Below the pieces are notes generated by a model, which ran no database searches, was not told the origin of the DNA, and saw only the letters and a program-made list of their open reading frames with translations. Position numbers and translations under genes: made by a program. 64,000 bases of DNA, taken from positions 65,985 through 129,984 of the forward strand of contig JABTVA010000002.1 in NCBI GenBank assembly GCA_015075075.1, read 5' to 3'. Positions 30,493-49,524 of the stretch are shown in pieces. Position 1 is the stretch's first letter. Each line of letters starts with the position of its first letter. Source of the DNA: Deltaproteobacteria bacterium (lineage in GTDB: Bacteria; Desulfobacterota; GWC2-55-46).

Positions 30493-30569
30493 TTGGCGCG
30501 CCCGGAGGGATTCGAACCCCCGACCCTCTGATTCGTAGTCAGATGCTCTGTCCAGCTGAGCCACGGGCG
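30493..30569 (-). tRNA. tRNA-Arg (anticodon ACG), CCA encoded
   Basis: Reverse complement GCGCCCGTGGCTCAGCTGGACAGAGCATCTGACTACGAATCAGAGGGTCGGGGGTTCGAATCCCTCCGGGCGCGCCA folds as a cloverleaf. Anticodon loop is CTACGAA, the T-loop GGTTCGAATCC, and the 3' end is CCA. Confidence 0.9.
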
Positions 30570-30767
30570 CTTATGCTTGCTTTTTCCCGGAAATGCCCTG
30601 AGAGGCCTGAAAGAAAAACTGTTTGCAACCAAAGGCGGGCCCAAAATAACGGCCCGGCCTTGTTCGCCAAAAGATTTTAACATCTGGGGATTTTCAGTCA
30701 AGAGATTAGTAGAGGCGCTCTCAGCGAATAAGAACCCGGGGACCCTGCGGGCAGCCACCGGGCAAGT

Positions 30768-31065: not shown

Positions 31066-31320
31066 ATGGACTCGATAACATTCCTGGGGCTTCTGGGCGG
31101 GACCCTTACTACCGCCTCATTTTTCCCCCAGGTGGTCAAAACGATAAAGACCCGCTCGACAAAAGACGTTTCGTTCGCGATGTTCCTGCTCCTGTCCATC
31201 GGGATAACCATCTGGATAATATACGGTATCAAGATAGGCTCCATCCCGGTGGTGATAGCGAATTCCGTCTCGCTCGTCTTCTCGCTTATCATCCTGATAC
31301 TCAAGCTGGTATATAAATAG
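31066..31320 (+). CDS. SemiSWEET / PQ-loop (MtN3-like) three-TM sugar transporter
   Basis: 84 aa. AGGAGG RBS 6 nt upstream. Contains the PQ motif (FFPQVVKTIKTRSTKDVS) and three hydrophobic helices. Confidence 0.7.
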   Translation: MDSITFLGLLGGTLTTASFFPQVVKTIKTRSTKDVSFAMFLLLSIGITIWIIYGIKIGSIPVVIANSVSLVFSLIILILKLVYK

Positions 31321-33289: not shown

Positions 33290-33874
33290 ATGTTCTCAAG
33301 GCACCTGGTTAAGATGCTCACGTGCGCGCTTTTTGCGCTCTTTCTGGCCGGCGCGCCCGCCAACGCCGCCAATGAGGCGGGCGGGTCCGAATACCTGATA
33401 GGCCCGGAGGACGTGCTCGAAATAGTGGTCTGGAGGAATACCGAATTATCAAGACAGGTCACGGTGAGGCCCGACGGCCGGATAACGCTGCCGCTCATAG
33501 GCGAACTCCCCGCCGCAGGCCTCACGCCCGAGAAGCTCAGGGCGGAGATAGTCGAGCGCCTCAAGGAGTACCAGCAGAGCGCGGTCGTAGCCTCCGTAAT
33601 AGTGCAGAGCGTCAACAGCTACAGGGTGTACGTCCTCGGGCAGGTGCAGGTGCCCGGGAGCTACACCCTTAAGTCCAGGACCACGGTCCTGCAGGCATTG
33701 TCGCTCGCCGGTGGTTTCAGCCAGTTCGCGTCCAAGAACAAGATAGTGCTGATAAGAAAACGGGCCGACGGACTCGATGACAAGATCCAGGTAAAGTTCA
33801 ACGACCTGGTATACGACGAAGAGAGCCGCGCGAACGAGTACCTTTTGCCGGGAGACACGATTTTTGTTCCGTAG
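33290..33874 (+). CDS. polysaccharide export outer-membrane/periplasmic protein (Wza/Poly_export family, PEP-CTERM-locus type)
   Basis: Signal peptide, Poly_export motif (IGPEDVLEIVVW...DGRITLPLIGEL) and an SLBB domain. Confidence 0.8.
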   Translation: MFSRHLVKMLTCALFALFLAGAPANAANEAGGSEYLIGPEDVLEIVVWRNTELSRQVTVRPDGRITLPLIGELPAAGLTPEKLRAEIVERLKEYQQSAVVASVIVQSVNSYRVYVLGQVQVPGSYTLKSRTTVLQALSLAGGFSQFASKNKIVLIRKRADGLDDKIQVKFNDLVYDEESRANEYLLPGDTIFVP

Positions 33875-34994
33875 GATGCTCCTTACCGCTCTTTTATTGT
33901 CGGTCCCGGCCGGGGAGGCATGGGCATGGGTCGCAAGGCCGTCGCTATCGACCGAGTTCCGCTTCGAGAAGAACTCCGGCCCCGCATCGGACGGAAGCGG
34001 CTCAGGGGACGACAGTATTCTGAGGGCGTCTCCCAGGCTCGACCTGGAAAATAGCGGCATGAACATCGGCTTCAACGCCGGGTACGCGTTTACCTGGAAT
34101 CAATACCTCGGCGACCACGACAGGGACTGGACAGCCCATAATGCCGTCGCTGGACTTGACATGAGGATATCACCTTTGACCGAGCTGCAGGCAGGATACG
34201 ACTTCACCTACACGAGGGAGCCGAGGGAGGCGACCACGACGGGCATCGAGGCCTTCCGGGCCGCCGATATCCGCTCGCATAACGCCAATGTAAGCGGCTC
34301 TCGCCTGATAAGTCCCAGGCTCACGGGCAGGCTTTCGCTTTCCGGCGAGGTCCTCGAGTTCGAGGACCCCTCTGCAGTGGACAGCAGGACGCTCTCGGCT
34401 GGCGCGGCCGGAGAGTTCCGCTGGACTGAAAGGACGAGCTTCACCCCGGCTTATGAGTACACGAACCTCGATTACGACTCCGGCCCGTCGACGGAGATAC
34501 AGAGCCATTCGCTTAACGCCGGCTTTTCAACCCGGCACTCGGAGAGCCTTGCCTATAACATTTCCGCGGGCCTGGCCTATTCGACCGGCCTAAGCGACCG
34601 GGTAGACTGGACTGCCGGGGCCGGCCTTTCAAAGTCGTTCCAGCGGGGCTCCGTTTCGGCCTCCTACTCGAGAGGCGTATCGGACAGCTCCGGGCTGGCC
34701 GATGAGCTCAACATAAGCGAGACCGTCACGGCGGGCCTCTCCAGGAACCTGAGCGATTCCGCCTCTTTCTCCTTGACCGCAGGCTATGCCAGGAACAGGA
34801 CAAGACCGGCAGGCGCAGTGGACCTTCGGTCATATTCAGCGGACATGGGCGTAAGGTGGCAACTGCTACGCTGGGCGACAATCGGCGCCGGCATAAGCCA
34901 CTTTAACCAGCTCTCCTACGGGACTACCGGCTCTGACGTGGAGAGGAACGCCTTTTACCTCAACCTGACACTGCAGAGCGAATACAGGCCCTAA
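33864..34994 (+). CDS. predicted outer-membrane beta-barrel protein, EPS-locus associated
   Basis: Signal peptide, alternating amphipathic strands rich in Gly/Ser/Tyr, and an aromatic C-terminus. Confidence 0.5.
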   Translation: MFRRMLLTALLLSVPAGEAWAWVARPSLSTEFRFEKNSGPASDGSGSGDDSILRASPRLDLENSGMNIGFNAGYAFTWNQYLGDHDRDWTAHNAVAGLDMRISPLTELQAGYDFTYTREPREATTTGIEAFRAADIRSHNANVSGSRLISPRLTGRLSLSGEVLEFEDPSAVDSRTLSAGAAGEFRWTERTSFTPAYEYTNLDYDSGPSTEIQSHSLNAGFSTRHSESLAYNISAGLAYSTGLSDRVDWTAGAGLSKSFQRGSVSASYSRGVSDSSGLADELNISETVTAGLSRNLSDSASFSLTAGYARNRTRPAGAVDLRSYSADMGVRWQLLRWATIGAGISHFNQLSYGTTGSDVERNAFYLNLTLQSEYRP

Positions 34995-34995
34995 A

Positions 34996-36504
34996 ATGGA
35001 AAACTTCAACATCATATCTTTTCTTGAGGCGGCATACAGGCGCAAGTGGCTCGTCATCGCGCCTGCCGCGCTGGGCACCGCCGTAGCCGCCGTAGTGGCC
35101 TGGCTCATGCCCTCGTATTACCTCTCTGCGACGCTGATACTCGTCGAGCAGCAGCAGGTGCCTGCGTCCTACGTGACCCCTACGGATGTCACTCCCTTCA
35201 ACCAGCGCCTCAATACCATCCGCCAGCAGATACTCAGCAGGCCGAACCTCGAGCGCATCATAAGCGAGTTCAACCTCCACCAGACGAGCGGCGGCCTCCT
35301 TGAGCGGGCGGCTTCAAAGGCGGGTATCGACATGAGCAGGCCGCTAAGCCGCGAGAGCGCCCTTAACCGGCTTGTATCGAGCATCGAGATACGGCTCGTG
35401 GGAGAGAGGAGGGCGGAGGACGCGTTCAGCATAAGCTACTCGGGCACCGACCCCTACACGACCATGCAGGTCACGAGCGCCCTCGCGTCGATGTTCATAA
35501 ACGAGAACCTTAAGCGGAGAGAAATGTACGCAGAGGGGACCTCGGAGTTCCTGTCGGACGAGCTGGCGCGGGCCAAGAGCGAGCTCGAGACCCAGGAGCG
35601 CGCGGTGAGGGACTTCAAGGAAAGATACATGGGAGGGCTCCCTGAGCAGCTTGACGCGAACCTCCGGACGCTCGACAGGCTTCAGCTGGACCTCCAGGCG
35701 GTGCGGCTCGAGATAAAAAGCGCGGAGGACAGGAAGGTCCAGCTCGAAACCCAGCTTAGTTCGGCCGTGGGCGCAGTATCAGGCACCCAGGTCAACCCAC
35801 TGGTGGTGGAGATGGAGAGCCTGCAAAGGGAGCTTACGCAGCTCCTTTCGCAGTATAACGAGAACTACCCTGACGTGATCATCATAAGGAACCGGCTCAA
35901 GGAGCTCGGGAGCCTCCTTGCTTCGAACAGGACCGGGGCTGCCGAAGCCCAGGCCGTGGCACTCCCCGGGCCTGAGATACGGAACCCCGAGGCCTATAAC
36001 AACCTCGTCTCGGTCGAATCGCAGCTGCGCTCCCTGAGGACAAGGGAGCGCGAACTGAACGAGAACATCCGCGCCCTTGAGAAGCGGGTCGAGGAGACCC
36101 CTGCCAATGAGCAGCGGTACACGGACCTTAACAGGAATTACCAGATATCCTTCGCCAACTACCAGAACCTCCTTGAAAAGAGCCTGAACGCGCGCCTTGC
36201 CGAGAACCTCGAGAAGAGGCAAAAAGGCGAAAGGTTCAGGATAATCGACCCGGCAAACCTGCCGGAGGGGCCGTACAAGCCGAAACGAAGCCTCATCGCG
36301 CTGGCCGGCACGGTCATCGGGGCCGGTCTCGGGTTTGGCATCATATTCCTCCTTGAGTTCACGAGCCCGGCGTTCAGGAAACCGGAGGAGTTCGAGGGCC
36401 TCCTGGACTTCCAGGTCATTGCCTCGATCCCGGCTTTTGAGCCGGACCCGCATGCGAAAAAGGGCAGGTTCGGTAGGATACGCGGAGGGAGCGGAGATAG
36501 ATGA
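34996..36504 (+). CDS. polysaccharide chain-length determinant protein (Wzz/GumC-like, PEP-CTERM-locus type)
   Basis: 502 aa. N-terminal TM helix, long periplasmic coiled-coil region and a C-terminal TM helix (LIALAGTVIGAGLGFGIIFLLEF). Confidence 0.8.
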   Translation: MENFNIISFLEAAYRRKWLVIAPAALGTAVAAVVAWLMPSYYLSATLILVEQQQVPASYVTPTDVTPFNQRLNTIRQQILSRPNLERIISEFNLHQTSGGLLERAASKAGIDMSRPLSRESALNRLVSSIEIRLVGERRAEDAFSISYSGTDPYTTMQVTSALASMFINENLKRREMYAEGTSEFLSDELARAKSELETQERAVRDFKERYMGGLPEQLDANLRTLDRLQLDLQAVRLEIKSAEDRKVQLETQLSSAVGAVSGTQVNPLVVEMESLQRELTQLLSQYNENYPDVIIIRNRLKELGSLLASNRTGAAEAQAVALPGPEIRNPEAYNNLVSVESQLRSLRTRERELNENIRALEKRVEETPANEQRYTDLNRNYQISFANYQNLLEKSLNARLAENLEKRQKGERFRIIDPANLPEGPYKPKRSLIALAGTVIGAGLGFGIIFLLEFTSPAFRKPEEFEGLLDFQVIASIPAFEPDPHAKKGRFGRIRGGSGDR

Positions 36505-37983
36505 GCTTTCTTTCGAGATTCCTCGGCAAGAATAAAAAGGCCGAGCCCGAAAAAGCCCCGCCTTCCGGCCGTCTTTCCATAGTCGGGAAAAGGTCCCGGC
36601 CCCTTTCCCGCATATGGACGGTCGGCGGGGGCAAGGGCGGGGTGGGCAAAAGCGTCGTCGCCGCGAACTTCGCGACACTCCTTGCCGGCTCCGGACGTAG
36701 GACGCTCATCGTTGACGCGGACTTCGGCGCGGCCAACCTGCATACCCTTTTCGGGATACAGGGCTCCAACCCGTCCCTTTCGAGCTTTCTTAAGTCGGAG
36801 GTCGCGGATATCAGGAGGCTCATAACCGGGACAGGAATCCAGAAACTCGATATAATTACCGGTGCGATGGACTCGCTCAATATCGCGGACGTGGACGCAT
36901 CGTCGCTTATGCGCCTGCAGCGGGCCATCTCGGAGCTCGACTACGACCATGTCGTCCTCGACCTCTCGCCCGGCACATCATCCGACGTGCTCGACTGCTT
37001 TTTGATGTCCGACGAAGGGATACTCGTGACCACACCTGAGCCCACCTCGATAGAGAACACCTACAGGTTCATGAAGTGCCTGTTCCTCCGGAGGATACGG
37101 GCGATCATAAACTCCGGCGAGCCGGGGCGCCTGAAGGAGACGCTCAAGGCGGCCCTGGAGCGCGACCCGAGGATAGGGACCGTCTCGGAGTTCATGAAGA
37201 ACTTCAAGCTCAGCGCCGGAAGCGGATCGGCCCCTGAGGAGATCCTGGGAGGCATGGGGGGCCACCTCGTCGTAAACAGGACCAGGCTCCCGGAGGACCG
37301 CGCAATCGGGCCGCATATGCAGCGTGCCTGCATGAGCTACTTCGGCGTGCGCTTCAACCACCTCGGAGACATCGGCCAGGACACCTCCATAGAAGATTCC
37401 GTCCGGGCGAGAAGGCCTCTCGTCAGGGACTATCCGGGGAGCCCCGCCGCGCTCTCGCTCGTCTCCTGTTTCAGGAAGCTCTCATCCATCGAGGCGGGAA
37501 AAGGCCGGCAGGAGGCCGATAAAGGGGCTTATGCAGATATGAACCAGCGAGTGAACATCGACTATTACGAGCTCTTGGATATCGCCCGGGGCGGCTCCCT
37601 CCGAGGTGGAAGAGGCTTACAGGAAGGCAATATCCGACCTGGGCGGCGACTCCGTGGCCATCTACTCGCTCTACACCCCGGAGGAGAAGGAAGAGCTTAT
37701 CTCCCGGCTTAACGAGGCATACGAGGTCTTGAGCGACCCTGAGAGGAGGGCCGCGTATGACGCCAGGGCCGCCAGCAGGCTGGAGCCAGCCGTAACGCGC
37801 GATTCGAGCTGGGCGACCTGGGCCCCAGCGGTCGACGCCCGCCACTTTAAAAGGTGCGGAAGACCACGGGCTTCGCCAGGCGCCGGTCTCCGCCTCCGGC
37901 GAAAACTCCATCATAACGGAACAGTACCGGATCCTGTATTCAAGGATACACTGGATAGCCGAGGAGGCAGCTCAAGGTCATAG
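36501..37983 (+). CDS. MinD/ParA-family P-loop ATPase with C-terminal degenerate J-like domain (frameshift near 37590; C-terminal boundary uncertain)
   Basis: Deviant Walker A GGGKGGVGKS and the IVDADFGAANL motif. The C-terminus reads IDYYELLDIARG then, in a shifted frame, EVEEAYRKAISDLGGDSVAIYSLYTPEEKEELISRLNEAYEVLSDPERRAAYD. This is J-domain-like but lacks HPD. Sequence after about 37800 is probably not part of the protein. Confidence 0.55.
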
Positions 37984-38516
37984 CCGTGACCAGCGCCGTA
38001 AAGGGAGAGGGCAAATCGGTCACCTCGCTCAACCTGGCGTACGTCACGGCATGCGAGTTCAAGAAAGGGTGCTCCTTGTAGAGTGCGATTTGCGGAAACC
38101 TCTACCCTTCGAGGATGATGAAGAACGCGAGGAAGAGTGCGGCCTCGCGGAGGTACTCGAGCAGGGGCGGACATACGGGACGCCATCTGCCGCGTGGACG
38201 GGACAAGCCCATCTCTCTTACCTCCGGCACGTGCACGAGGAGCTCATCCGAGCTCATAGACTCGCCGTATCTCAAGTCCATACTCAAGGGGTTCAGGGAC
38301 GAATTCGACTATGTATTCGTGGACACCCCGCCGATACTGCCCCTGGCTGACATGAACATCATATCGAGGATTGTGGACGGGACGATACTGGTAGTGAGGG
38401 CCGGGGCCACCCCGAAGAAGGTGGTCCTGAAGGCGGCCCAATCCCTTTCAGAGGGGCGTTTCATAGGCATAGTGCTTAACGGGGCCGATACCGCGCTGGC
38501 CAGCTACTATTATTAG
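37850..38516 (+). CDS. BY-kinase (CpsD/Wzc-type protein-tyrosine autokinase), fragmented by several frameshifts; boundaries approximate
   Basis: Pieces in three frames: SIITEQYRILYSRIHWIAEEAAQ, KVIAVTSAVKGEGKSVTSLNLA (Walker A), RVLLVECDLRKP (Walker A'), GLAEVLEQG..ADIRDAICRVDG, ISLTSGTCTRSSSELIDSPYLKSIL, FDYVFVDTPP (Walker B), and the Tyr cluster ASYYY at the C-terminus. Confidence 0.65.
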
Positions 38517-38524
38517 GGGGACAC

Positions 38525-39913
38525 ATGCTCTTCAACAGGCACCCTTCCAAGCGACTGCTGTACATAGCCCTCATCGAGGGCCTTCTCATATTCCTTGCCG
38601 CGCTCGTGTCGGTTGCGATACGCCTCTCTTTCGAAGGCGGCGCAATGGTCAAATACGACCCCAGCTATCTCAAGAGCCTGGTGCTGACCGCGACTTACCT
38701 CGTCACCTTCTACTACTTCGACCTCTACACGCCCGACATGTACAGGCCGAGCCGCTATATGTTCTCAAGGCTCATAAAAGGCATGATAGTGGCGGCCATA
38801 ATACAGTTCAGCATCTTCTACATCATCCCGTCCCTCAAGATATGGCGGGGCATACTGCTCATCAACATGCTCATAATGCCCTCGGCCATCATATTCTTCA
38901 GGCTCGTATTCTCCAAGATACTGAAGATAAAGCTCCCCGGGAAGCGCGTCCTCATCATCGGCGCCGGCGACCTCGCGAAAAGGATCGGGAGCGAGATATA
39001 CACCAAGCCCGAGCACGGCCTCAATCTCGTGGGCTTCATCGACGACGACCCGACCAAATACGGGGTATCCATCGTAAACCCGGGCGTCATCGGCGGGTAC
39101 GGCGACATCTCGAGGCTCGCGGACGAGCAGAATATCGACCTCATAATAGTCGCTCTCCCGGACAGGAGGGCCAAGCTCCCCATGTCGGCACTCCTCGACT
39201 GCAAGCTCAAGGGCATATCAGTCGAGGAAAGCGAGACCTTCAAGGAGCGGCTCACCGGCAAGATACCTCTCGACCACCTGAAACCGAGCTGGATGGTCTT
39301 CTCTGACGGCTTCAGGTCGCTCAGGTCCAGGAAGTTCGTAAAGAGGTCCCTCGACATCGTCTTCGCGGCCCTCTGGCTCGTGGTGGCTGCGCCGGTAATG
39401 CTCCTTACCTCGATGATAATCAAGCTCGAATCAAAGGGGCCTGTCATATTCAAGCAGGTCAGGGTTGGAGAGCACGGCAAGGAGTTCAACATCTACAAAT
39501 TCCGCTCGATGCGCCAGGACGCGGAGGCCAAGACCGGGCCGGTGTGGGCGGTGGCCAACGACGACAGGGTCACCCTGGTGGGGCGCATAATAAGGAAGCT
39601 CCGCATAGACGAACTCCCGCAGCTCGTAAACGTCCTTAAGGGAGATATGAGCTTCGTCGGCCCGAGGCCCGAGCGCCCGTATTTCGTCAACAAGCTCAGG
39701 GAGGAGATCCCGTACTACAATATCAGGACGGTGGTGAAGCCGGGCCTGACCGGGTGGGCGCAGATAAAATATCCATACGGCGCGAACATGGAGGACGCGG
39801 TCGAGAAGCTCCAGTATGAGATATTTTATATCAAGAACATGTCCCCTCTCCTCGACTTCATGATAATGTTCTGGACCATAAAAGTCGTGCTCACCGGCAA
39901 GGGGGCGAGATAG
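38525..39913 (+). CDS. exopolysaccharide polyprenyl glycosylphosphotransferase (WbaP/EpsB-type priming sugar transferase)
   Basis: 462 aa. Four or five N-terminal TM helices. C-terminal bacterial sugar transferase domain (KFRSM...DELPQLVNVLKGDMSFVGPRPERP). Confidence 0.85.
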   Translation: MLFNRHPSKRLLYIALIEGLLIFLAALVSVAIRLSFEGGAMVKYDPSYLKSLVLTATYLVTFYYFDLYTPDMYRPSRYMFSRLIKGMIVAAIIQFSIFYIIPSLKIWRGILLINMLIMPSAIIFFRLVFSKILKIKLPGKRVLIIGAGDLAKRIGSEIYTKPEHGLNLVGFIDDDPTKYGVSIVNPGVIGGYGDISRLADEQNIDLIIVALPDRRAKLPMSALLDCKLKGISVEESETFKERLTGKIPLDHLKPSWMVFSDGFRSLRSRKFVKRSLDIVFAALWLVVAAPVMLLTSMIIKLESKGPVIFKQVRVGEHGKEFNIYKFRSMRQDAEAKTGPVWAVANDDRVTLVGRIIRKLRIDELPQLVNVLKGDMSFVGPRPERPYFVNKLREEIPYYNIRTVVKPGLTGWAQIKYPYGANMEDAVEKLQYEIFYIKNMSPLLDFMIMFWTIKVVLTGKGAR

Positions 39914-39958
39914 GGCTACGGAACCTCCTCCTTTCTGCCGATATGGAAAGATAGAAAA

Positions 39959-40447
39959 ATGATGAACTGGTACGCCATATACACGAAATCAGGCTGCGAG
40001 GAGAGAGTGTCCTCCCGGCTTAACGGAGCCGGCTTCAGCGTCCTGAACCCGCTCCTGAAGGAGAGGAGACTCTACCGGAGGAAGCTCCAGGAGGTGGTCT
40101 CGCCGCTTTTCCCCTGCTACATATTCGCCGAGCTCAATATGCCTGCCCATTACCGCCTCATAAGGTACACGCGGGGGGTAAGGCAGATAGTCGGCAACGA
40201 GGCCGCACCCCTGCCTGTACCGGATGCCGTCATAGGCTCGATACTTGGCAGGATGGAAAACGGCCTGGTCGCGGTAAGGCGCGACGAGTTCAGCCCCGGC
40301 GAGAGCGTGGCCATAAAGGGCGGGGCCTTCGAGGGTTTCGAGGCCCTGTTCGAGCGGGAGATGAGCGGCTCCGAGAAGGTGAGCATACTCCTCAAGGCCC
40401 TGAACGCCCGGATAATACTGGACAGGGCCCTTCTGGCAAGGCTTTAA
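39959..40447 (+). CDS. rfaH: RfaH-type NusG paralog (operon-specific transcription antiterminator)
   Basis: NGN domain WYAIYTKSGCEERV...PLFPCYIFAE and a KOW-like C-terminus (GAFEGFEALFE...ILLKALN). Aligns with E. coli RfaH along its full length. Confidence 0.75.
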   Translation: MMNWYAIYTKSGCEERVSSRLNGAGFSVLNPLLKERRLYRRKLQEVVSPLFPCYIFAELNMPAHYRLIRYTRGVRQIVGNEAAPLPVPDAVIGSILGRMENGLVAVRRDEFSPGESVAIKGGAFEGFEALFEREMSGSEKVSILLKALNARIILDRALLARL

Positions 40448-40463
40448 ATGCGTGGAGCACCAG

Positions 40464-40488
40464 GGCAGCGTAACCGAGCTGCCTTTTT
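40464..40488 (+). terminator. intrinsic terminator after rfaH (GGCAGC-gtaaccga-GCTGCC TTTTT)
   Basis: 6-bp stem followed by T5, 17 nt after the rfaH stop. Confidence 0.45.
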
Positions 40489-40499
40489 GAAGAAGCACC

Positions 40500-40529
40500 T
40501 TGTACTGCCATTCGGAAATAGCCTATTTA
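40500..40529 (+). promoter_or_regulatory. candidate promoter TTGTAC-N18-TATTTA for the downstream long operon
   Basis: Weak hexamer matches. Would place the TSS about 25 nt upstream of the ops-like element. Confidence 0.25.
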
Positions 40530-40561
40530 ACGGGTGCAAAAAATCCTAAGTGCACCTGAAC

Positions 40562-40573
40562 GGCGGTAGCCTG
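40562..40573 (+). promoter_or_regulatory. ops-like RfaH recruitment element GGCGGTAGCCTG (consensus GGCGGTAGnnTG) in the leader of the asnB-like operon
   Basis: Matches the 8-bp core plus TG on the non-template strand. Lies 14 nt upstream of the first ATG of a roughly 24 kb co-directional operon and right after a rfaH-like gene. Confidence 0.65.
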
Positions 40574-40586
40574 CCCGGAATCTGAC

Positions 40587-42563
40587 ATGTGCGGAATAGC
40601 TGGAATAACCGGAGGGGACCTGGCTGTCTGCCAGGAGGCCTTGAAGTCGATGCTCTCGATGCTCCGCCACCGGGGACCGGACGACTTCGGCCTCTACAAC
40701 GACGGACGCGCGGCCCTGGGGCACACGAGGCTCAGCATAATAGACCTCGCGGGCGGGCGCCAGCCCATGTCCAACGAGGACGGGAGCGTCTGGATAACCT
40801 TCAACGGCGAGATATTCAACTACATAGAACTCAAGGACGAACTGTCAAGAAAGGGGCACCGCTTTTCAACAAACTCCGATACCGAGGTAATTGTCCACCT
40901 CTATGAGGAACTCGGAGACGGGTGCGTTACGCGCCTTAACGGCCAGTTCGCCTTCGCGATATGGGACAAAAACCGCTCCGAGCTTTTTATCGCGCGCGAC
41001 AGGCTCGGGATACGGCCACTTTTTTACTCTTCGCACGCGGGCCGCTTCTATTTCCCCACCGAGATAAAGGCGCTCTTCGCCGGGGGGCCTCTCCCGAGGG
41101 AGATAGACCCGGCCGCGCTTGACGAGATATTCACCCTGTGGTGCAGCGTGCCGCCGAGGACCGCCTTCAAGGGAATAAACGAGCTTCCTCCCGCGCACTG
41201 GATGAAAATAAGGGACGGGGCAGTCTCGTCGGTCAAGCGCTACTGGGACGTGCCGCTCGGCGAAGAGCCCCTCGATATAAGCATCGAAGAGGCGGCGGAC
41301 GGGCTTTTTGATATCCTTTCGGATGCGACGCGCCTGCAGCTGCGGGCCGACGTGCCGGTCGGGGCCTACTTGAGCGGCGGGCTCGACTCCTCCATAACCG
41401 CCGCGCTGATAACTAAGATAACCGGAGCCGGCCCGCATACCTTTTCCGTGGCGTTCGAGGACGGGGCATACGACGAAAGCGGGTTCCAGCACGAGATGGC
41501 CCGCCACCTCGGGACCGAGCACCACGAGGTACGGTGTTCGTACTCCGACATAAGCGGGGTATTCCCGGAGGTCGTCTGGTACGCCGAGAAGCCGGTCCTA
41601 CGGACCGCGCCCGCCCCGCTCTTCATCCTCTCGCGCCTTGTGAGGGAGACCGGGCTCAAGGTGGTCCTTACGGGCGAGGGCGCGGACGAGGCGGCCGGCG
41701 GCTACGATATTTTCAAGGAGGCGAAGATACGGGAGTTCTGGGCGCGCGAGCCGGAATCCAGGCTCCGTCCCCTGCTACTTAAGAAACTTTATCCATACCT
41801 GAGCGCGTTCCAGGGCCAGTCCGACGCGTACAGGGAGGCCTTCTTTAACGGCGGCCTCTCCGACGTCTCAGACCCCCTCTTCTCCCACCGTCCAAGGTGG
41901 CAGACCACTTCAAGGCTCAAGGCCTTTTTCTCGAAGGACCTCCTGGCCGAAAACACTTCCGGCCCGGAGGAGCGGCTTAAGTCGCTTATGCCCCGGGGGT
42001 TCGGAGGCTGGAGGGCGCTCGCCAGGGCGCAGTACATAGAAACGGCGGGTCTCCTGCCGGGCTACATACTCTCTTCCCAGGGCGACAGGGTGCTCATGGG
42101 TAACTCGGTGGAAGGGCGGTACCCTTTCCTCGACCACAGGGTCGTCGAGTACTGCGCCCGCTTGCCGCTTCGGCATAAGATGCGCGGCCTCGACGAAAAG
42201 CACGTGCTCAAGCGGATGGCGCGCGGCATGCTGCCCGCCTCGATCCTCAAAAGGACAAAGCAGCCCTATCTGGCGCCTGACAGCAAGAGCTTTTTTGCCG
42301 GCGGCAAGGCGCCCGATTACGTGGAGGAGCTTCTCTCCGAGGGGTCGCTCAAGGACTACGGCTACTTCGATCCCGGGTCCGTGGGGCTCCTCGTCAAGAA
42401 ATGCCGGAGGGGCGCAGCGAGCGGCTTCAGGGACAACATGGCCCTTGTAGGCATACTCTCAACGCAGCTACTGCATAACATGTTCATAGCCGGGTTCGAG
42501 GGCAGGGCCGCGAGAGGGCGCGATGCGGCGGGCCTCCGGGCGCCGGCTACCGCGGCTTCATAA
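40587..42563 (+). CDS. asparagine synthetase (glutamine-hydrolysing)-family amidotransferase, exosortase-A-locus type
   Basis: N-terminal MCGIAG Ntn glutaminase domain and a PP-loop SGGLDSS. Confidence 0.85.
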   Translation: MCGIAGITGGDLAVCQEALKSMLSMLRHRGPDDFGLYNDGRAALGHTRLSIIDLAGGRQPMSNEDGSVWITFNGEIFNYIELKDELSRKGHRFSTNSDTEVIVHLYEELGDGCVTRLNGQFAFAIWDKNRSELFIARDRLGIRPLFYSSHAGRFYFPTEIKALFAGGPLPREIDPAALDEIFTLWCSVPPRTAFKGINELPPAHWMKIRDGAVSSVKRYWDVPLGEEPLDISIEEAADGLFDILSDATRLQLRADVPVGAYLSGGLDSSITAALITKITGAGPHTFSVAFEDGAYDESGFQHEMARHLGTEHHEVRCSYSDISGVFPEVVWYAEKPVLRTAPAPLFILSRLVRETGLKVVLTGEGADEAAGGYDIFKEAKIREFWAREPESRLRPLLLKKLYPYLSAFQGQSDAYREAFFNGGLSDVSDPLFSHRPRWQTTSRLKAFFSKDLLAENTSGPEERLKSLMPRGFGGWRALARAQYIETAGLLPGYILSSQGDRVLMGNSVEGRYPFLDHRVVEYCARLPLRHKMRGLDEKHVLKRMARGMLPASILKRTKQPYLAPDSKSFFAGGKAPDYVEELLSEGSLKDYGYFDPGSVGLLVKKCRRGAASGFRDNMALVGILSTQLLHNMFIAGFEGRAARGRDAAGLRAPATAAS

Positions 42564-42588
42564 GCAATTTCAAGGAGGGATTCAGCAA

Positions 42589-42849
42589 ATGCATGATAAG
42601 ATAAGAGAGTTCATCTTCGAGAACTTCCTTTTCAATGCCGAGGGGAGCGCGCTCGACAACGACGCCTCGTTCCTCGAGACCGGCATAATAGACTCGACCG
42701 GCATGCTCGAGCTCGTGAACTGGATACAGGAGACCTACGGCTTCGAGGTCGACGATACCGAGCTCGTCCCGGAGAACCTCGACAGCGTAAACCGGCTCGC
42801 CATATACATAGACAGGAAGACGCAGGCAGCGACCCGGGTATCCGGATAA
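42589..42849 (+). CDS. acyl carrier protein
   Basis: AGGAGG RBS. Phosphopantetheine attachment motif GIIDSTGMLELV. Confidence 0.75.
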   Translation: MHDKIREFIFENFLFNAEGSALDNDASFLETGIIDSTGMLELVNWIQETYGFEVDDTELVPENLDSVNRLAIYIDRKTQAATRVSG

Positions 42850-42945: not shown

Positions 42946-44523
42946 ATGCTCGTACACGACTATCTCATACGCTCGGCCGAACGCTTCCCCGAGAAGACCG
43001 CCCTGGTCCACGGCGGCAGGCGGACCTCGTACTCCGAGCTCCTTTCGCTGGCCTCGTCCGTCTCATCATGGCTGAGGCACGCGGGCGTGGAAAAGGGCGA
43101 CCGGGTCGCGATACTGAACGACGACCCGAGGGAATACATAAGCTCCTATTTCGGCATACTCATGGCCGGCGGGATAGTCGTCGCGCTTAATACCGACACT
43201 TCGGCCAGGACCCTCGGCGCGCAGATAAGCGGGTGCGGCGTTTCCGCAGCCATAACCCAGGCGAAGTTCATGGGCTACTTGAGGGACCTCGGAAAGGGAG
43301 TCACTTCGCTTAAGTCGGTCGCGGCATCCGGGCTCAAGCCCTCGGACGCCGGGGACGAGGGATATGCCCTCTCTGACCTCAAGGACGCCTTCGTATTTCC
43401 GCCCGGCACCCCGGCCCGATCAGCGCGAGCGGACCTCGCGCAGGTCATCTATACGTCCGGCACGACCGGCGGCTCGAGCGCGGTGACGCTCAGGCATTCC
43501 AACCTCGCGGCCAACACGGCTTCGATAATCGAGTACCTAAAGCTCGGAGAGGGCGACAGCGTAATGGCGGTGCTGCCTTTTTTCTATTCCTACGGCAACT
43601 CGGTCATGCTTACCCATATCGCGGCGGGCGGCAGGCTCGTCGTAAACCAGAATTTCCTGTATCCGAACCTCATACTCGACCAGATGGCCGCCGAGGAGGT
43701 GACGGGCTTCTCCGGCGTGCCTTCGACCTATGCGATACTCCTCAACCGCTCCGCCCTCAGGCGCTACAAGTTCCCGGCCTTGAGGTACATGACACAGGCT
43801 GGCGGGGCAATGCCGCCCAGGCTCGCGCGCGAGATGAAGTCCGTATTCCCGGATGTGGACTTCTACGTAATGTACGGCCAGACAGAGGCCTCGGCCAGGC
43901 TCTCCTATCTTGAGCCCCATGAGCTCCTTAGGAAGGCGGGCTCGGTCGGGAAGGCCATACCCGGCGTCCTGCTTGAGGTGCTCGACGAAGGCGGCGGGCC
44001 GGTCGGGCCGGGCGAGACCGGCGAAATAGTCGCGAGCGGCGAGAACATCATGGCCGGGTACTGGAGAGAGCCCGAGAAGACCGCGAGGGTGCTTAAAAAC
44101 GGGAAACTCTGGACGGGCGACCTCGCCAGGGTCGACGAGGAGGGGTTCATCTACATAGTCAGCCGGAAAAGCGATATCATTAAATGCGGCTCCCACAGGA
44201 TCCACCCGGCTGAAATAGAGGAGGTTCTGGCCGAGCATGCCGCCGTCCACGAGTCCGCTGTAATAGGCGTGGAGGACGAGATACTCGGCGAGGCGCTGAA
44301 GGCCCTTGTAGTATTGAAGACCGGATACCAGTGCTCCCGGAACGAGCTCCTGCAGCACTTGAAGGCGCTGCTTCCGTCGTACAAGGTCCCGCAGCACATC
44401 GATTTCATCCCGGAGCTCCCGAAGACATCGAGCGGCAAGATAAAACGAGCGCTTCTAAAGACCCCTTCCGCGCCGGGGTCGCCTGGGTCAATCGGCCAGC
44501 GAAGCCAAAAGGAGGCCGGATGA
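42946..44523 (+). CDS. acyl-CoA ligase (AMP-forming), exosortase-A-locus type
   Basis: AMP-binding motifs YTSGTTGGSS and GYWREPEKTA plus the adenylation core. Confidence 0.85.
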   Translation: MLVHDYLIRSAERFPEKTALVHGGRRTSYSELLSLASSVSSWLRHAGVEKGDRVAILNDDPREYISSYFGILMAGGIVVALNTDTSARTLGAQISGCGVSAAITQAKFMGYLRDLGKGVTSLKSVAASGLKPSDAGDEGYALSDLKDAFVFPPGTPARSARADLAQVIYTSGTTGGSSAVTLRHSNLAANTASIIEYLKLGEGDSVMAVLPFFYSYGNSVMLTHIAAGGRLVVNQNFLYPNLILDQMAAEEVTGFSGVPSTYAILLNRSALRRYKFPALRYMTQAGGAMPPRLAREMKSVFPDVDFYVMYGQTEASARLSYLEPHELLRKAGSVGKAIPGVLLEVLDEGGGPVGPGETGEIVASGENIMAGYWREPEKTARVLKNGKLWTGDLARVDEEGFIYIVSRKSDIIKCGSHRIHPAEIEEVLAEHAAVHESAVIGVEDEILGEALKALVVLKTGYQCSRNELLQHLKALLPSYKVPQHIDFIPELPKTSSGKIKRALLKTPSAPGSPGSIGQRSQKEAG

Positions 44524-45515
44524 CACTCTGCGGGAATTGCGTGCTCCCTTCTACCTTCCCGGGCATAAGCTTCGACGACTCGGGCGTCTGCTGCTTCTGC
44601 CGGAACCACAAGCCGGAAAGCGCAGGCGAAAGCGCCATGAGGAAGTTCGAAGAGAAGTTCCTCAAGCTCGCGGCCGAGAACGGCGGCAAGGGCAACTACG
44701 ACGTGCTCATGGCCTACAGCGGCGGCAAGGACAGCACCTATACAATGGACCTCTTCGTGAGGAAATACGGCTTGAGGGTGCTCGCCTTCACCTTCGACAA
44801 CACATTCGTATCGGAGAAGGCGTTCTCGAACATGAGAAAGGTATGCGAAAGCCTCGGTGCCGACCACATCGTGTACAGGCCGGACCCGAAGATGCTCCGC
44901 GCGATCTTCAGCGCCGCTTCGGAGCGGGAGCTCTACCCGGCCAAGACCCTTGAGCGCGCGAGCACCATCTGCACGAGCTGCATAGGCCTCGTTAAGGCCC
45001 TGATACTCAGGACCGCAATCGAGCGCGGGATAGCCGTCGTCGGCTTCGGCTGGTCCCCCGGGCAGGCGCCCATACAGTCCTCTGTCATGAGGACGAACCC
45101 GTCGCTTATGCGACTTACGCAGAAGGCCATACACGAGCCCCTGAGGTCCATAGCAGGCGACCGGGTCGACCCTTTCTTCCTTGCCGAGGAGCACTACGGA
45201 ATGCCCGAGCGGTTCCCGTGGAACGTGCACCCCCTCGCCTTCAACCACTATGACGAGGACATGATAATAGAGAGGAACTCTGAGCTGGGCTGGGAGAAGC
45301 CCGACGACACGGACGCAAACTCCACGAACTGCCTCCTTAACGCGTACGCGAACCAGCTCCACAAGGAACGGTACGGGTTCCACCCGTATGTCTGGGAAAT
45401 AGCGAACATGGTGCGTTCCGGCGCGATGACGCGCGAAAAGGGCCTTGAAAAGATTGACGCGATGGAAGACCCCCGGATGGTCGAACGCGCCCGCAAGGAA
45501 TTAGGCCGGGTATAA
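44520..45515 (+). CDS. N-acetyl sugar amidotransferase (WbuX-like PP-loop ATPase) with N-terminal zinc ribbon
   Basis: Start overlaps the upstream stop (ATGA). CGNC...CCFC ribbon and PP-loop SGGKDS. The ORF-track start at 44331 is an upstream extension. Confidence 0.7.
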   Translation: MTLCGNCVLPSTFPGISFDDSGVCCFCRNHKPESAGESAMRKFEEKFLKLAAENGGKGNYDVLMAYSGGKDSTYTMDLFVRKYGLRVLAFTFDNTFVSEKAFSNMRKVCESLGADHIVYRPDPKMLRAIFSAASERELYPAKTLERASTICTSCIGLVKALILRTAIERGIAVVGFGWSPGQAPIQSSVMRTNPSLMRLTQKAIHEPLRSIAGDRVDPFFLAEEHYGMPERFPWNVHPLAFNHYDEDMIIERNSELGWEKPDDTDANSTNCLLNAYANQLHKERYGFHPYVWEIANMVRSGAMTREKGLEKIDAMEDPRMVERARKELGRV

Positions 45516-47166: not shown

Positions 47167-48002
47167 ATATCCGGAACGCATTGACGATCGACGTCGAGGA
47201 CTACTACATGGTGACCGGCTTCGCCGGCAGGGTCAGGTTCGAGGACTGGCCGAAGTTCGAAAGCAGGGTGGCCATGAGCACGAGAAGGGTCCTCGCCCTC
47301 CTCTCCGAATACGGGGTCAAGGCCACCTTCTTCGTCCTCGGCTGGGTGGCTGAAAACGACCCGCGCCTCGTAAGGGAGATACATTCCGAGGGGCACGAGG
47401 TGGCCTGCCACGGCTACAACCACCGCCTTATATATGACACGACCCCTGACGAGTTCAGGGAGGACATCAGGAAATCGAAGCGCATCCTCGAGGACATCTC
47501 AGGGGGGGCGGTTTCAGGATACAGGGCCGCCAGCTACTCGGTCACAAGGAAAACGCTATGGGCCCTCGACATACTGATGGAGGAGGGCTTCCTTTACGAC
47601 TCGAGCATATTCCCCATACACCACGACAGGTACGGCATACCGGACGCCTGCCGGTTCCCCTACGAGATAAAAAGGAACGGCGGCACACTGATGGAGTTCC
47701 CGCCGTCCACGCTCCGCCTCCTTGGCCAGAACCTTCCGATCGCGGGAGGCGGCTACCTCAGGCTTCTACCCTCATGGCTTACAAGGGCGGCAGCGAAAAG
47801 GATAAACTCCAAAGAGCGGAAACCGGTAATCTTCTACATACACCCCTGGGAGGTCGACGAGGGGCAGCCGAGGCTCGAGGTCGGCTCTCTTTCCGCGTTC
47901 AGGCATTACACGAACATAAAGAGCACGTCAGCCAAGCTCGAAGGGCTCATGAGGGAGTTCCGCTTCAGGCCCCTATCAGCGTTCCTGGATGGAAATGCAT
48001 AG
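47163..48002 (+). CDS. polysaccharide deacetylase family protein (XrtA/PEP-CTERM locus subtype, DUF3473)
   Basis: LTIDVEDYY...FFVLGWVAE...HGYNH NodB-type motifs. Confidence 0.8.
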   Translation: MNIRNALTIDVEDYYMVTGFAGRVRFEDWPKFESRVAMSTRRVLALLSEYGVKATFFVLGWVAENDPRLVREIHSEGHEVACHGYNHRLIYDTTPDEFREDIRKSKRILEDISGGAVSGYRAASYSVTRKTLWALDILMEEGFLYDSSIFPIHHDRYGIPDACRFPYEIKRNGGTLMEFPPSTLRLLGQNLPIAGGGYLRLLPSWLTRAAAKRINSKERKPVIFYIHPWEVDEGQPRLEVGSLSAFRHYTNIKSTSAKLEGLMREFRFRPLSAFLDGNA

Positions 48003-49524
48003 CGAAAGGAGTATCCTCCCCTCGCCCTTCCAGCTCAAGCTGGGCGCGCTCATCGTCCTTTTCGCGCTCGCGTACAGCGGAGCGATCTCGCACATGGTGC
48101 GGACATGGAGCACGAGCAACACCTACTCCCACGGCTTCCTTGTCCCCCTGATAAGCATTTATTTCATATGGATGAAAAGGGGCGCCCTGAGCTCGCTTTC
48201 CTCAAAGCCGAGCCTCGCGGCCGGTCCTGTCGCGGTTGCGGCGACATCAATGCTCCTGGCCGCCGGACACGTGAGCAGCCTTGTGATCGTCCAGCAGATT
48301 TCCCTTGTGCTGGCCCTTCCGGCCCTTGTACTCATGCTCATGGGCTGGGGCTTTTTGCGGGCCCTGGCGCTGCCTCTATCGTATCTCCTCCTCATGGTCC
48401 CGGCGCTCGACATCCTTATCGAGCGCATCCAGTTCCCTTTCCAGCTCATTACGGCGAAGATGGCGGCCGGGTTTCTGCAGCTCTTCAATGTTCCCGTTTT
48501 TCTCAACAGGCAGTTCATCGAGATGCCGAATATAACCATCGAGGTCGCCAGGGCCTGCAGCGGCGTTCAGTACCTCGTCGCCATAATAGCGCTTGCGATA
48601 CCGCTCGCCTACCTGAACCATACCGGCCGCACGAGGCTCGTCATACTCGCCCTGGCCGTCGCGATAGGGGTCGTGACAAACTGGCTCCGGGTCATATTCA
48701 TAGCGCTCTGGAGCTACGCGGGAGGCGAGGTCCTGCACGGCCCCATGCACGTATTCCAGGGGCTCTTCGTGGCAGTAGCCGGGTTTTTCATACTCTTCAT
48801 CATCTCCATGGTCCTGACCAGGTCCGAAAGACGGTCCGGCAAATCCGGCCCTGAGGCGAAGACGGCCTCGTCATACGGGGCCTTTTCCATGTCGAATGCC
48901 GCTTTCGCAGCCGGAGCGCTTCTATTAGCGGCGACTGCGGCGTACATACACCTCCACAAGACGGAGCCCGTCCCCCTTGCCGAGCCGCTAAGGAGGCTTC
49001 CCCTGCAGATAGCCGAATGGAAGGGCGCGGACAGGGCTTCGCGCGGCGAGCTCCCTTTCCTCATGAAGGGCGCGGACTCCGAGCTCTACAGGACGTACAC
49101 TGGCCCGTCGGGCAGGGAGGTCCGGGTCTATGTGGCATATTTCACGGCGCAGACCCAGGGACGGGAGCTGGTCCGGCACGAGCACGCGGCCATGTTCGGC
49201 TCGGAACGGACAATCGAGCTCCCGTACGGCGAAGGGTCCGTCATGGCCAACCTGGCCGCGTACTCAGGCCCCAGGGACTACCGGATACTCTACTGGTACA
49301 GCATAAACGGAAGGCACGTAACCGGGAGGGTCAAAGCCAAGCTCATGACCCTCGTGGACGGGGTCTTTCGGAAGCGGACCAACGGAGCTGTGGTAATGAT
49401 ATTCTGGGACGCCACGGACGAAGTCGAAGCTGGGCTTGACCTTGAGCGGGCTGGCTTTATAGAGGCCCTGCTCCCGGCCATAGAATCAAGGATCAGCAAA
49501 TTCGAAACAGAGGAGATCGCATGA
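47989..49524 (+). CDS. xrtA: exosortase A (XrtA) fused to EpsI-family domain
   Basis: 511 aa. N-terminal eight-TM exosortase region (active-site region ...ITIEVARACSGVQYL...) and a C-terminal periplasmic EpsI-like domain of about 200 aa. Confidence 0.8.
   Translation: MEMHSERSILPSPFQLKLGALIVLFALAYSGAISHMVRTWSTSNTYSHGFLVPLISIYFIWMKRGALSSLSSKPSLAAGPVAVAATSMLLAAGHVSSLVIVQQISLVLALPALVLMLMGWGFLRALALPLSYLLLMVPALDILIERIQFPFQLITAKMAAGFLQLFNVPVFLNRQFIEMPNITIEVARACSGVQYLVAIIALAIPLAYLNHTGRTRLVILALAVAIGVVTNWLRVIFIALWSYAGGEVLHGPMHVFQGLFVAVAGFFILFIISMVLTRSERRSGKSGPEAKTASSYGAFSMSNAAFAAGALLLAATAAYIHLHKTEPVPLAEPLRRLPLQIAEWKGADRASRGELPFLMKGADSELYRTYTGPSGREVRVYVAYFTAQTQGRELVRHEHAAMFGSERTIELPYGEGSVMANLAAYSGPRDYRILYWYSINGRHVTGRVKAKLMTLVDGVFRKRTNGAVVMIFWDATDEVEAGLDLERAGFIEALLPAIESRISKFETEEIA

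Follow-up and report, generated by a model that had tools for sequence, protein, structure and literature searches.

The question raised by this locus is whether a NusG paralog, encoded at the junction of two polysaccharide operons of an uncultured deltaproteobacterium, is loaded onto RNA polymerase at a site just beyond its own gene. RfaH and its ops element are the textbook example of an elongation factor loaded by a DNA signal. In the 64,000-nt stretch of contig JABTVA010000002.1 analyzed here (the window), the gene of the paralog is followed, in the leader of a long polysaccharide operon, by the sequence GGCGGTAGCCTG. Based on the sequence comparisons described below, we consider it likely that the paralog is RfaH-like and that GGCGGTAGCCTG is its cognate ops-type loading site, serving an operon of at least 23 kb. 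The initial annotation of this DNA had proposed the same core, an RfaH-type paralog whose own ops heads a long polysaccharide operon, and the association of the motif with leaders and with the paralog supports it. For the protein, "RfaH-like specialized NusG paralog" is a safer name than "RfaH" because it scores below the NCBIfam cut-offs for RfaH and has lost H20, R23, and Q24 of the ops pocket.

The element, its position, and its conservation

When both strands of the 64 kb are considered, the E. coli ops consensus, GGCGGTAGnnTG, is matched exactly at a single site, GGCGGTAGCCTG (Table 1). As in the cognate ops of RfaH, the exact 12-nt consensus is carried by the non-template strand in the leader of the target operon, as had been reported at first annotation. 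Within the 139-nt leader, the element starts 115 nt beyond the stop codon of the paralog gene, and 13 nt separate it from the ATG of the first target gene, which encodes an AsnB-like amidotransferase; the distance of 14 nt given earlier is obtained only by counting to the A of that ATG. The element also fits the consensus pause: T11 (40572), the predicted pause position, falls at -1, G2 (40563) at -10, and G12 (40573) at +1. Two homologous elements have C at position 11, the base at -1 remaining a pyrimidine.

The chance level of the match was evaluated using dinucleotide shuffles of the window (n = 100). These yielded 0.16 exact ops matches per window, with at least one match in 16 of the 100, and an exact match is weak evidence when taken alone. 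The corresponding rate was approximately 1.25e-6 per position, or roughly one per 800,000, so that the previous estimate of well under one in a million was somewhat optimistic. On the sense strand of the 139-nt leader, the expectation of an exact match was about 2e-4. The one-mismatch sites at 19538 (+), 31105 (-), and 57878 (-) were discarded, as four sites were found versus 4.9 expected by chance. The second of these, GGCGGTAGTAAG at 31105-31116 (-), has the core GGCGGTAG intact but is missing the TG and was also judged to be due to chance. It lies among short overlapping open reading frames (ORFs) between a tRNA-Arg gene (30494-30570, -) and the gene of a LuxR-type regulator, and no convincing operon leader was found downstream of it. 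The significance of the element in the leader rests on its position and on its conservation, and the latter is strong.

To assess conservation, 17 distinct loci (designated here by L numbers) were retrieved through protein homology alone from MAGs (metagenome-assembled genomes) of Deltaproteobacteria and Nitrospirae, with 39-82% identity to the window paralog. In 12 of these loci, GGCGGTAGC[C/T][T/C]G[C/T][C/T]C occurs on the same strand, 65-226 nt 3' of the paralog stop codon; the chance of finding GGCGGTAG within any 300-nt stretch is approximately 0.005. When 10 leaders were aligned, the mean column identity was 34%, yet no variation occurred in the columns of GGCGGTAGCC.G.CC. Conservation extends past the 12 nt of the E. 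coli ops to give GGCGGTAGC-Y-Y-G-Y-Y-C, positions 9-15 being C-Y-Y-G-Y-Y-C. The gene order of the window is kept whole in L006, L008, and L010, including the genes for AsnB, the acyl carrier protein, the ligase, and the exosortase. In more distant loci, the paralog and the element precede ordinary polysaccharide operons encoding MarR-type, epimerase, Wzy, Wzx, or UDP-glucose dehydrogenase proteins; the stretches fetched contain no exosortase gene. It is therefore long polysaccharide operons in general that the pairing accompanies, and not exosortase systems in particular.

The search was also performed in reverse, using the exact 18-mer AACGGCGGTAGCCTGCCC against metagenome contigs, which returned 73 contig stretches. 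In 12 of these, a paralog of the family ends 59-584 nt upstream of the match on the same strand. The initial annotation would have been contradicted by a motif that was common and unattached to leaders, which is not what these searches show: the paralog lies upstream of it in 12 of 17 homolog loci and 12 of 73 reverse matches. Matches were called intergenic or coding by greedy tiling of ORFs, a crude procedure in GC-rich DNA because of spurious antisense ORFs, and only clear cases were used. Among intergenic matches with no paralog in the fetched stretch, the next genes encode a Wzx flippase, a MarR/HTH_24 protein, a sugar epimerase, a PIG-L deacetylase, and a 23S-rRNA-IVP protein. The MarR/HTH_24 genes resemble the heads of the polysaccharide operons that follow the paralog in L014 and L020. 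One further intergenic match precedes GlnE and is probably due to chance.

Several loci from these searches have features of their own. In L036, the 18-mer (34-51) lies 39 nt 5' of an ORF of a distant NusG-family protein (73-615; 71 bits with the family hidden Markov model), an order of element before factor gene that resembles the arrangement of UpxY or of plasmid PrfaH. In L037, L041, L058, L077, L084, and L091, the 18-mer falls within long ORFs; its surroundings there are alike, CGACACCAACGGCGGTAGCCTGCCC, and are translated in frame as D-T-N-G-G-S-L-P. This octapeptide is a conserved motif in the proteins of an enzyme family; it has no relation to ops and gives rise to false positives when sequences are scanned for the element. 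In L004, degenerate tandem repeats (GCCCTTAGCC / GCCTTTTGCC) begin right after the element and continue to the end of the fetched stretch (~6700-6940). Finally, the first gene after the element in L094 (1885-2250), L097 (6667-7038), and L069 encodes a 23S-rRNA-intervening-sequence protein, a four-helix bundle of PF05635; toxin-antitoxin and Peptidase_S74 genes follow, and then sugar genes, an odd but recurrent start for an operon.

The paralog and its leader

Pfam detects a NusG NGN domain in the 162-residue ORF (68.9 bits). Among NCBIfam models, those of RfaH rank highest (TIGR01955, 95.6 bits; NF006534, 87.1 bits), followed by UpxY (64.3 bits), NusG (49.6 bits), and LoaP (43.7 bits), the last being the lowest of the specialized-paralog models. 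The protein fails the cut-offs for UpxY (NF033644, 100 bits), LoaP (NF033641, 125 bits), and housekeeping NusG (TIGR00922, 135.7 bits). A UpxY- or LoaP-type factor, which the initial annotation had kept in view, is thus disfavored, as both models score lower than RfaH and under their own cut-offs. The RfaH models also gave the best E-values for all 73 aligned relatives, ahead of UpxY, LoaP, and NusG. Using phmmer against the PDB, the top match was E. coli RfaH (E = 4e-18), with residues 1-152 of the paralog colinear with residues 1-150 of RfaH; this agrees with the end-to-end alignment noted earlier, over which the identity is 35% (BLASTP). NusG chains matched more weakly: E. coli NusG (2jvv) had an E-value of 8e-6 and the best NusG chain (8f5g) 2.4e-6. 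The database record of the paralog is a hypothetical protein of a Deltaproteobacteria MAG (locus tag HS130_02135), and its relatives are numerous in MAGs labelled Deltaproteobacteria and Nitrospirae.

The gene lies 45 nt 3' of the gene for a priming transferase that matches TIGR03013 and 139 nt 5' of the presumed target operon, whose genes are on the same strand; its placement between priming glycosyltransferase and long operon was thus described correctly at the outset. It is the last gene of the preceding operon (33290-40447), not the first gene of the target, and it is not monocistronic as the gene of RfaH is.

Residues of the paralog were compared with E. coli RfaH, whose numbering is used throughout, in an alignment of the 73 relatives; residue roles were taken from PMC5995543 and PMC7593976. 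The paralog retains K10, R16, F56, T72-R73-G74-V75, I93, and F130. K10, T72, R73, G74, and F130 are invariant among the relatives, V75 and I93 are invariant or nearly so, and F56 occurs in 72 of the 73. At the position of R138, the window paralog has Lys and 72 of the 73 relatives have Arg. The Rho-binding loop of NusG, I-F-G, is A-L-N in the paralog and L-I-N in RfaH. Loss of this loop and F56, which is associated with tight binding to the polymerase, are both RfaH traits (PMC7593976).

The leader contains two hairpins in addition to the element. The hairpin nearer to the paralog gene resembles an intrinsic terminator by RNA folding; a simple terminator scan of 39800-40700 did not flag it. 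By eye, GC-rich inverted repeats and T-rich tracts occur at the same place in the alignment in L001, L006, L008, and L010, with differing stems. The initial annotation had placed a terminator and then a possible promoter here. The terminator is borne out by the folding of the hairpin with its U5 tract, whereas the promoter is weak: a sigma-70 scan of 39800-40700 flagged none on the + strand and none between the terminator and the ops-like element. An internal promoter in the leader is nevertheless plausible because Nitrospirae relatives have sigma-70-like hexamers at the equivalent place. By eye, L003, L004, L014, and L020 have TTGAC/TTGAT/TTGAA, approximately 17 nt, and TATATT/TATTAT/TATCAT/TATTCT between gene and element.

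The same four leaders share TAGTTCAGTGNCTGAACGC after the hexamers (L003, ~1215-1235; L004, ~6625-6645; L014; L020; columns 190-212 of alignment A2). It forms a 5-bp hairpin, TTCAG/CTGAA, near the expected transcript start, 40-60 nt 5' of the ops-like element. In deltaproteobacterial leaders, CCTGAAC abuts the element instead.

The second hairpin of the window leader ends 3 nt 5' of the element, and this arrangement recurs. A hairpin of at least 4 bp ending 2-4 nt (mostly 3) before G1 was found in 15 of 21 distinct leaders, including L001, L003, L006, L008, L010, L011, L014, L020, L033, L057, L068, and L079. In 300 trials, dinucleotide shuffles gave 3.4 such leaders on average and 9 at most, and anchors slid upstream gave 1-3 of 23. 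The stems are lineage-specific, with changes on both arms (GGGTGCA/TGCACC, CCTGTC/GACAGG, GGCCTTT/AAAGGCC), so it is the structure that is conserved and not the sequence. The last paired base lies approximately 14 nt from the predicted pause position. In hairpin-stabilized pauses, this spacing is about 11 nt, somewhat shorter.

Using Rfam at gathering thresholds, only a tRNA was detected in the window and no JUMPstart. At a permissive threshold, JUMPstart (RF01707) matched 40548-40573 with 15.9 bits versus a gathering threshold of 35 (E = 0.58). The missing Shine-Dalgarno sequence before the first target gene was considered as an RfaH-like trait and rejected, as many genes of the window are also without one.

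Table 1. Features of the paralog locus and flanking operons. Coordinates are positions in the window.
Feature	Coordinates	Strand	Basis or details
Priming polyprenyl glycosyl-phosphotransferase	38525-39913	+	TIGR03013, 485.8 bits (cut-off 393.35); Pfam Bac_transf
RfaH-like specialized NusG paralog, 162 aa, NGN and KOW domains	39959-40447	+	Pfam, NCBIfam, PDB phmmer, AlphaFold2 (AF2)
Intrinsic-terminator-like hairpin, AGGGCAGC / GCUGCCUU + U5	40462-40488	+	RNA fold, -14.6 kcal/mol, z -2.91
Weak candidate promoter, TTGTAC, 17-18 nt, CTATTT/TATTTA	40500-40529	+	Read from sequence
Leader hairpin, CGGGUGCA, 12-nt loop, UGCACCUG	40531-40558	+	Fold of 40526-40575; ends 3 nt 5' of the element
ops-like element, GGCGGTAGCCTG	40562-40573; to 40576 with conserved CCC extension	+	Motif search, leader alignment, homolog loci
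AsnB-like amidotransferase, 658 aa, first target gene	ATG at 40587	+	NCBIfam/Pfam
Target operon, about 21 same-strand genes	40587-64000, runs off the window	+	NCBIfam, Pfam
Exosortase XrtW with fused C-terminal EpsI domain	47989-49524		NCBIfam NF038142

Competing readings and proposed mechanism

Several findings weigh against an RfaH-like factor loaded at its own ops. The paralog is under both curated RfaH cut-offs (144.5 bits for TIGR01955 and 124 bits for NF006534), and no promoter was flagged ahead of the element. Five of the 17 homolog loci lack the element beside the gene (L002, L005, L016, L018, and L095): L002 has a partial match and L005 none; in L016/17 a copy, GGCGGTAGCATGCC, is distal, 7.8 kb downstream in another intergenic gap; and in L018/19 and L095, which have no element, the paralog is beside a molybdopterin oxidoreductase gene and a PilY1 gene, respectively. 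The pairing of paralog and element is thus frequent but not universal. The 14 nt of the extended element (40562-40575) can be folded as a 5-bp RNA hairpin, GGCGG-UAGC-CUGCC, which would suit a signal at the RNA level. Finally, two properties of the protein itself, its ops pocket and its predicted fold, differ from those of E. coli RfaH.

In E. coli RfaH, the side chains touching ops are those of K10, H20, R23, and R73 (and R16), and the flipped-out T6 sits in a pocket lined by H20, R23, and Q24 together with R73 (PMC5995543). The paralog has K10, R16, and R73; H20 is replaced by R, R23 by G, and Q24 by A. Across the 73 relatives, these positions are occupied by K/L/R, N/D/G, and A, respectively. 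As H20, R23, and Q24 are not kept, ops recognition by the paralog, judged from these substitutions, cannot be identical to that by E. coli RfaH.

The position of E. coli A71 (residue 70 in the window paralog), just before the ops-contacting T-R-G-V, is aromatic in the family: Tyr in 71 of the 73 relatives and Phe in 2. In E. coli RfaH, no aromatic side chain lies close to the flipped bases (PMC5995543). In the family, the absence of H20, R23, and Q24 could be made good by this Tyr.

In the AF2 model, built from the 73-sequence alignment (predicted local distance difference test score of 91.6), the C-terminal domain is a beta barrel and not the helical hairpin. At full length, the model matches only structures of active RfaH on RNA polymerase (8phk_P and 6c6s_D); autoinhibited RfaH matches via the N-terminal domain only, superposing at about 2 A, and the NGN domain superposes on ops-bound RfaH (5ond) at 2.1 A. 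E48 of the autoinhibitory salt bridge is Ser in the paralog and Glu in 38 of the 73 relatives. The positions of the autoinhibitory interface, I93, F130, and R138, are conserved in the family, R138 being the Lys noted above in the window paralog. If the C-terminal domain is indeed constitutively beta, the paralog would not need ops for activation. An AF2 prediction cannot settle whether the domain switches its fold, and the model agrees with a group of RfaH homologs for which a "monomorphic" state is predicted.

The RNA hairpins suggest a reading in which the signal is read in the nascent transcript: the upstream hairpin and the hairpin of the element would recruit the paralog, or would form a hairpin-stabilized pause. 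LoaP is recruited in such a manner, through a leader RNA hairpin, and binds RNA. Conservation exceeding the 12-nt E. coli ops and the folding of the extended element fit this reading, as do the additional hairpin, whose arms covary and which ends 2-4 nt before the element in 15 of 21 leaders, and the replacement in the family of three residues of the E. coli DNA pocket. Moreover, in leader-proximal copies, positions 10, 11, 13, and 14 vary only between C and T opposite G, so that each pair remains G-C or G-U. However, the element contains no two-sided pair change: its 5' arm never varies, so the pairing is hypothetical. One pair is lost in the distal copy of L016, GGCGGTAGCATGCC. What does not vary coincides with GGCGGTAG, which E. 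coli RfaH reads in DNA (PMC5995543), and the DNA-contacting K10 and T72-R73-G74-V75 are invariant. The LoaP model, moreover, is the lowest-scoring of the specialized-paralog models. We consider recognition of the signal as RNA to be improbable.

The predicted fold points in another direction, to a constitutively active paralog that acts only in cis, being picked up by the very polymerase by which its gene has just been transcribed; the element would then be a mere pause without base-specific recognition. This would account for the high-confidence beta barrel and its full-length matches to active RfaH only, the Ser in place of E48, and the location of the element just 65-226 nt 3' of the gene in most loci. 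Homologs of RfaH predicted to be monomorphic and encoded in or beside long operons were constitutively active in vivo according to a 2026 preprint (PMC13015549). Cis-only action is harder to reconcile with the central GGTAG. A plain pause requires no more than the flanking G at -10, pyrimidine at -1, and G at +1; the central bases vary among sites of the consensus pause and can be dispensed with (PMC5995543), yet they are invariant in the leader alignment. The terminator hairpin in the window and the promoter-like site between gene and element in several relatives argue for separate transcripts. The occurrence of the element before polysaccharide genes without the paralog in the fetched stretch suggests action in trans, and the positions of the autoinhibitory interface, I93, F130, and R138, are conserved in the family. 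We hold cis-only action to be similarly doubtful. It is very improbable that the match is a coincidence or an unrelated site, such as part of a promoter or the binding site of a LuxR- or MarR-type regulator. An exact match did arise in 16 of 100 shuffled windows, and the 18-mer also occurs within coding regions in the D-T-N-G-G-S-L-P frame (L037, L041, L077, and L091). Against this, paralog and element occur together in 12 of 17 loci on the same strand at a constrained distance in leaders that cannot otherwise be aligned, the element has the very sequence of the ops defined by experiment, and in Nitrospirae leaders the element is 3' of the promoter-like hexamers and is therefore transcribed and not part of the promoter.

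These findings could also be combined. The ops may be read by a rebuilt surface, in which the Tyr at the A71 position replaces the H20/R23/Q24 pocket, or it may form a composite with the nascent-RNA hairpin, set by the 3-nt spacer, for a paralog that is constitutively beta. We regard this as unlikely. If true, the ops signal would be older and more widespread than RfaH autoinhibition and its pocket, and the family would represent a natural intermediate in the evolution of RfaH from NusG.

The mechanism that we favor, loading of an RfaH-like factor at ops, starts from what is directly established: the element and its position, its retention beside the paralog in lineages far apart, the resemblance of the protein to RfaH in sequence and fold, and the upstream hairpin. 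The paralog would be made from the last gene of the export and priming operon, whose transcription would end at the hairpin-U5 terminator. The next operon would be transcribed from the internal promoter or by read-through of the terminator, producing first the leader hairpin and then the ops-like element. RNA polymerase would pause at T11, as expected from the agreement of this site with the consensus pause (G at -10, pyrimidine at -1, G at +1). On the paused polymerase, the exposed non-template GGCGGTAG would be bound by the NGN domain via K10, T-R-G-V (T72-V75), and family-specific residues. The factor would then stay on the polymerase, exclude NusG and Rho, and suppress pausing, leading to full-length transcription of an operon of at least 23 kb. 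From the similarity to RfaH we infer that the polymerase pauses, that non-template DNA is recognized, and that the factor persists on the polymerase and acts in antitermination; the whole target operon would then be RfaH-dependent.

Flanking operons and comparison with known systems

Long and closely packed, the presumed target is a polysaccharide operon of the kind on which RfaH classically acts. As described in the initial annotation, it runs from the asnB-like gene to a flippase gene. Its genes lie on the same strand with small gaps, and it spans at least 23.4 kb, the flippase gene leaving the window at 64000. Gaps between genes are mostly -19 to +28 nt, and the largest true gap is 117 nt. 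Apparent gaps of 382 and 1083 nt are filled by ORFs for an acyl carrier protein (42523-42849) and a WbuX-like protein (44331-45515). The encoded proteins comprise the AsnB-like amidotransferase, the acyl carrier protein, two AMP-dependent ligases, the WbuX-like amidotransferase, polysaccharide deacetylases, the exosortase XrtW fused to EpsI, FemAB-family and GNAT proteins, an aminotransferase, GT2 glycosyltransferases, an ATP-grasp protein, two hydrolases, an FkbM methyltransferase, and the Wzx flippase. The exosortase had been assigned to an XrtA system; it scores as XrtW (NF038142, 521.7 bits versus a cut-off of 425) and falls below the cut-off for XrtA (TIGR03109, 184.9 bits versus 208). 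Nonetheless, models for XrtA systems are passed by the products of neighboring genes: the priming transferase (TIGR03013), a deacetylase (TIGR03006), and a FemAB-family protein (TIGR03019).

The upstream operon (33290-40447), on the same strand, contains genes for a PilZ protein, an export protein, an outer-membrane protein, a chain-length determinant, and a ParA-like protein. Its last enzyme gene is that of the priming transferase, whose model, TIGR03013, is named "XrtA/PEP-CTERM system glycosyltransferase". Between the genes for the ParA-like ATPase and the priming transferase, at 37606-38516, one gene is split into at least three overlapping ORFs: 37606-37983 (matching DnaJ), 38051-38350, and 38115-38516 (matching the tyrosine-autokinase "eps_fam"). 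The same gene is intact in the syntenic L006, L008, and L010, where it encodes 319-335 residues with DnaJ and AAA_31 domains. By this comparison, the split is likely a frameshift, a pseudogene, or an assembly error.

The targets of E. coli RfaH are the waa, rfb, kps, hly, and tra operons, and rfaH forms a monocistronic unit whose product works in trans. The window locus shares with E. coli RfaH/ops the NGN-KOW architecture with 35% identity end to end, an RfaH-like loop in place of the Rho-binding loop, and an identical 12-nt element, which fits the consensus pause and lies on the sense strand in the leader of a long polysaccharide operon. Unlike E. coli RfaH, the paralog scores below the cut-offs, has H20, R23, and Q24 replaced and an aromatic residue (Tyr) at the A71 position, has a C-terminal domain predicted to be a beta barrel, and is encoded directly upstream of its presumed target. 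Unlike the E. coli ops, the element of the window and the family carries a constant extension (positions 9-15) and is preceded, at a distance of 3 nt, by a hairpin. The hosts also differ from E. coli, being Deltaproteobacteria and Nitrospirae MAGs.

UpxY of Bacteroides capsule operons, LoaP of Bacillus polyketide operons, and TaA of Myxococcus are specialized NusG paralogs encoded at the operons that they activate, which are often for polysaccharides. The window paralog is similarly encoded at its presumed target operon. Unlike UpxY, its gene ends the preceding operon and is not the first of its own, and the UpxY model scores below those of RfaH; no UpxZ-like partner was evident at the window locus. 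UpxY, LoaP, and TaA are not known to use GGCGGTAG.

JUMPstart (Rfam RF01707), which includes ops, is a motif of 39 bp in the leaders of enterobacterial polysaccharide operons. Like JUMPstart, the motif of the window leader is just 5' of the start of polysaccharide genes and ends in ops. The JUMPstart consensus is CAGCGcA, a variable 19 nt, and GGCGGUAGCGUG; the window has AAGUGCA, 7 nt, and GGCGGUAGCCUG. As the spacing and hairpin differ and the score is under the gathering threshold, the window leader is not a member of the curated family.

The initial annotation had called the arrangement classical for lipopolysaccharide, capsule, and hemolysin operons and not for XrtA systems. It is less novel than this implies, as RfaH-like genes beside exopolysaccharide operons are known in many phyla: Wang et al. 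2020 (PMC7593976) describe RfaH-like proteins in 23 phyla, with clusters CL2-CL8 beside glycosyltransferase, epimerase, and exopolysaccharide genes, and state that the mode of recruitment is known only for E. coli RfaH. The 2026 preprint (PMC13015549) reports a subset of RfaH homologs encoded in or next to long operons, in which AF2 predicts the active-state C-terminal domain and which were constitutively active in a reporter assay. The window locus fits both of these descriptions, of CL2-CL8 and of the "monomorphic" homologs. Neither a conserved ops in these lineages nor a link to exosortases was found in the available text of PMC7593976 or PMC13015549. In the literature searched, no paper linking RfaH with an exosortase was found; a gene for an RfaH-domain protein is present inside an exopolysaccharide locus of Pseudomonas stutzeri together with a PEP-CTERM-type chain-length determinant (PMC5532660).

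What appears to be new here, based on the alignments, is the conservation of ops beside RfaH-like genes across phyla, the extended consensus, the hairpin at a fixed spacing, and the divergent pocket residues. In MAGs of Deltaproteobacteria and Nitrospirae, the same GGCGGTAG persists next to RfaH-like genes despite the replacement of half of the E. coli pocket and the prediction of a C-terminal domain without autoinhibition. The locus is thereby an easily cloned test system for the evolution of ops recognition and for the need of autoinhibition for specificity. For annotation, a hairpin, 3 nt, and GGCGGTAGCYYGYYC could serve to mark the starts of long polysaccharide operons in these uncultured lineages, including XrtW loci. 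Set beside E. coli RfaH/ops, the locus reveals no new mechanism and is a distant new example of the known one.

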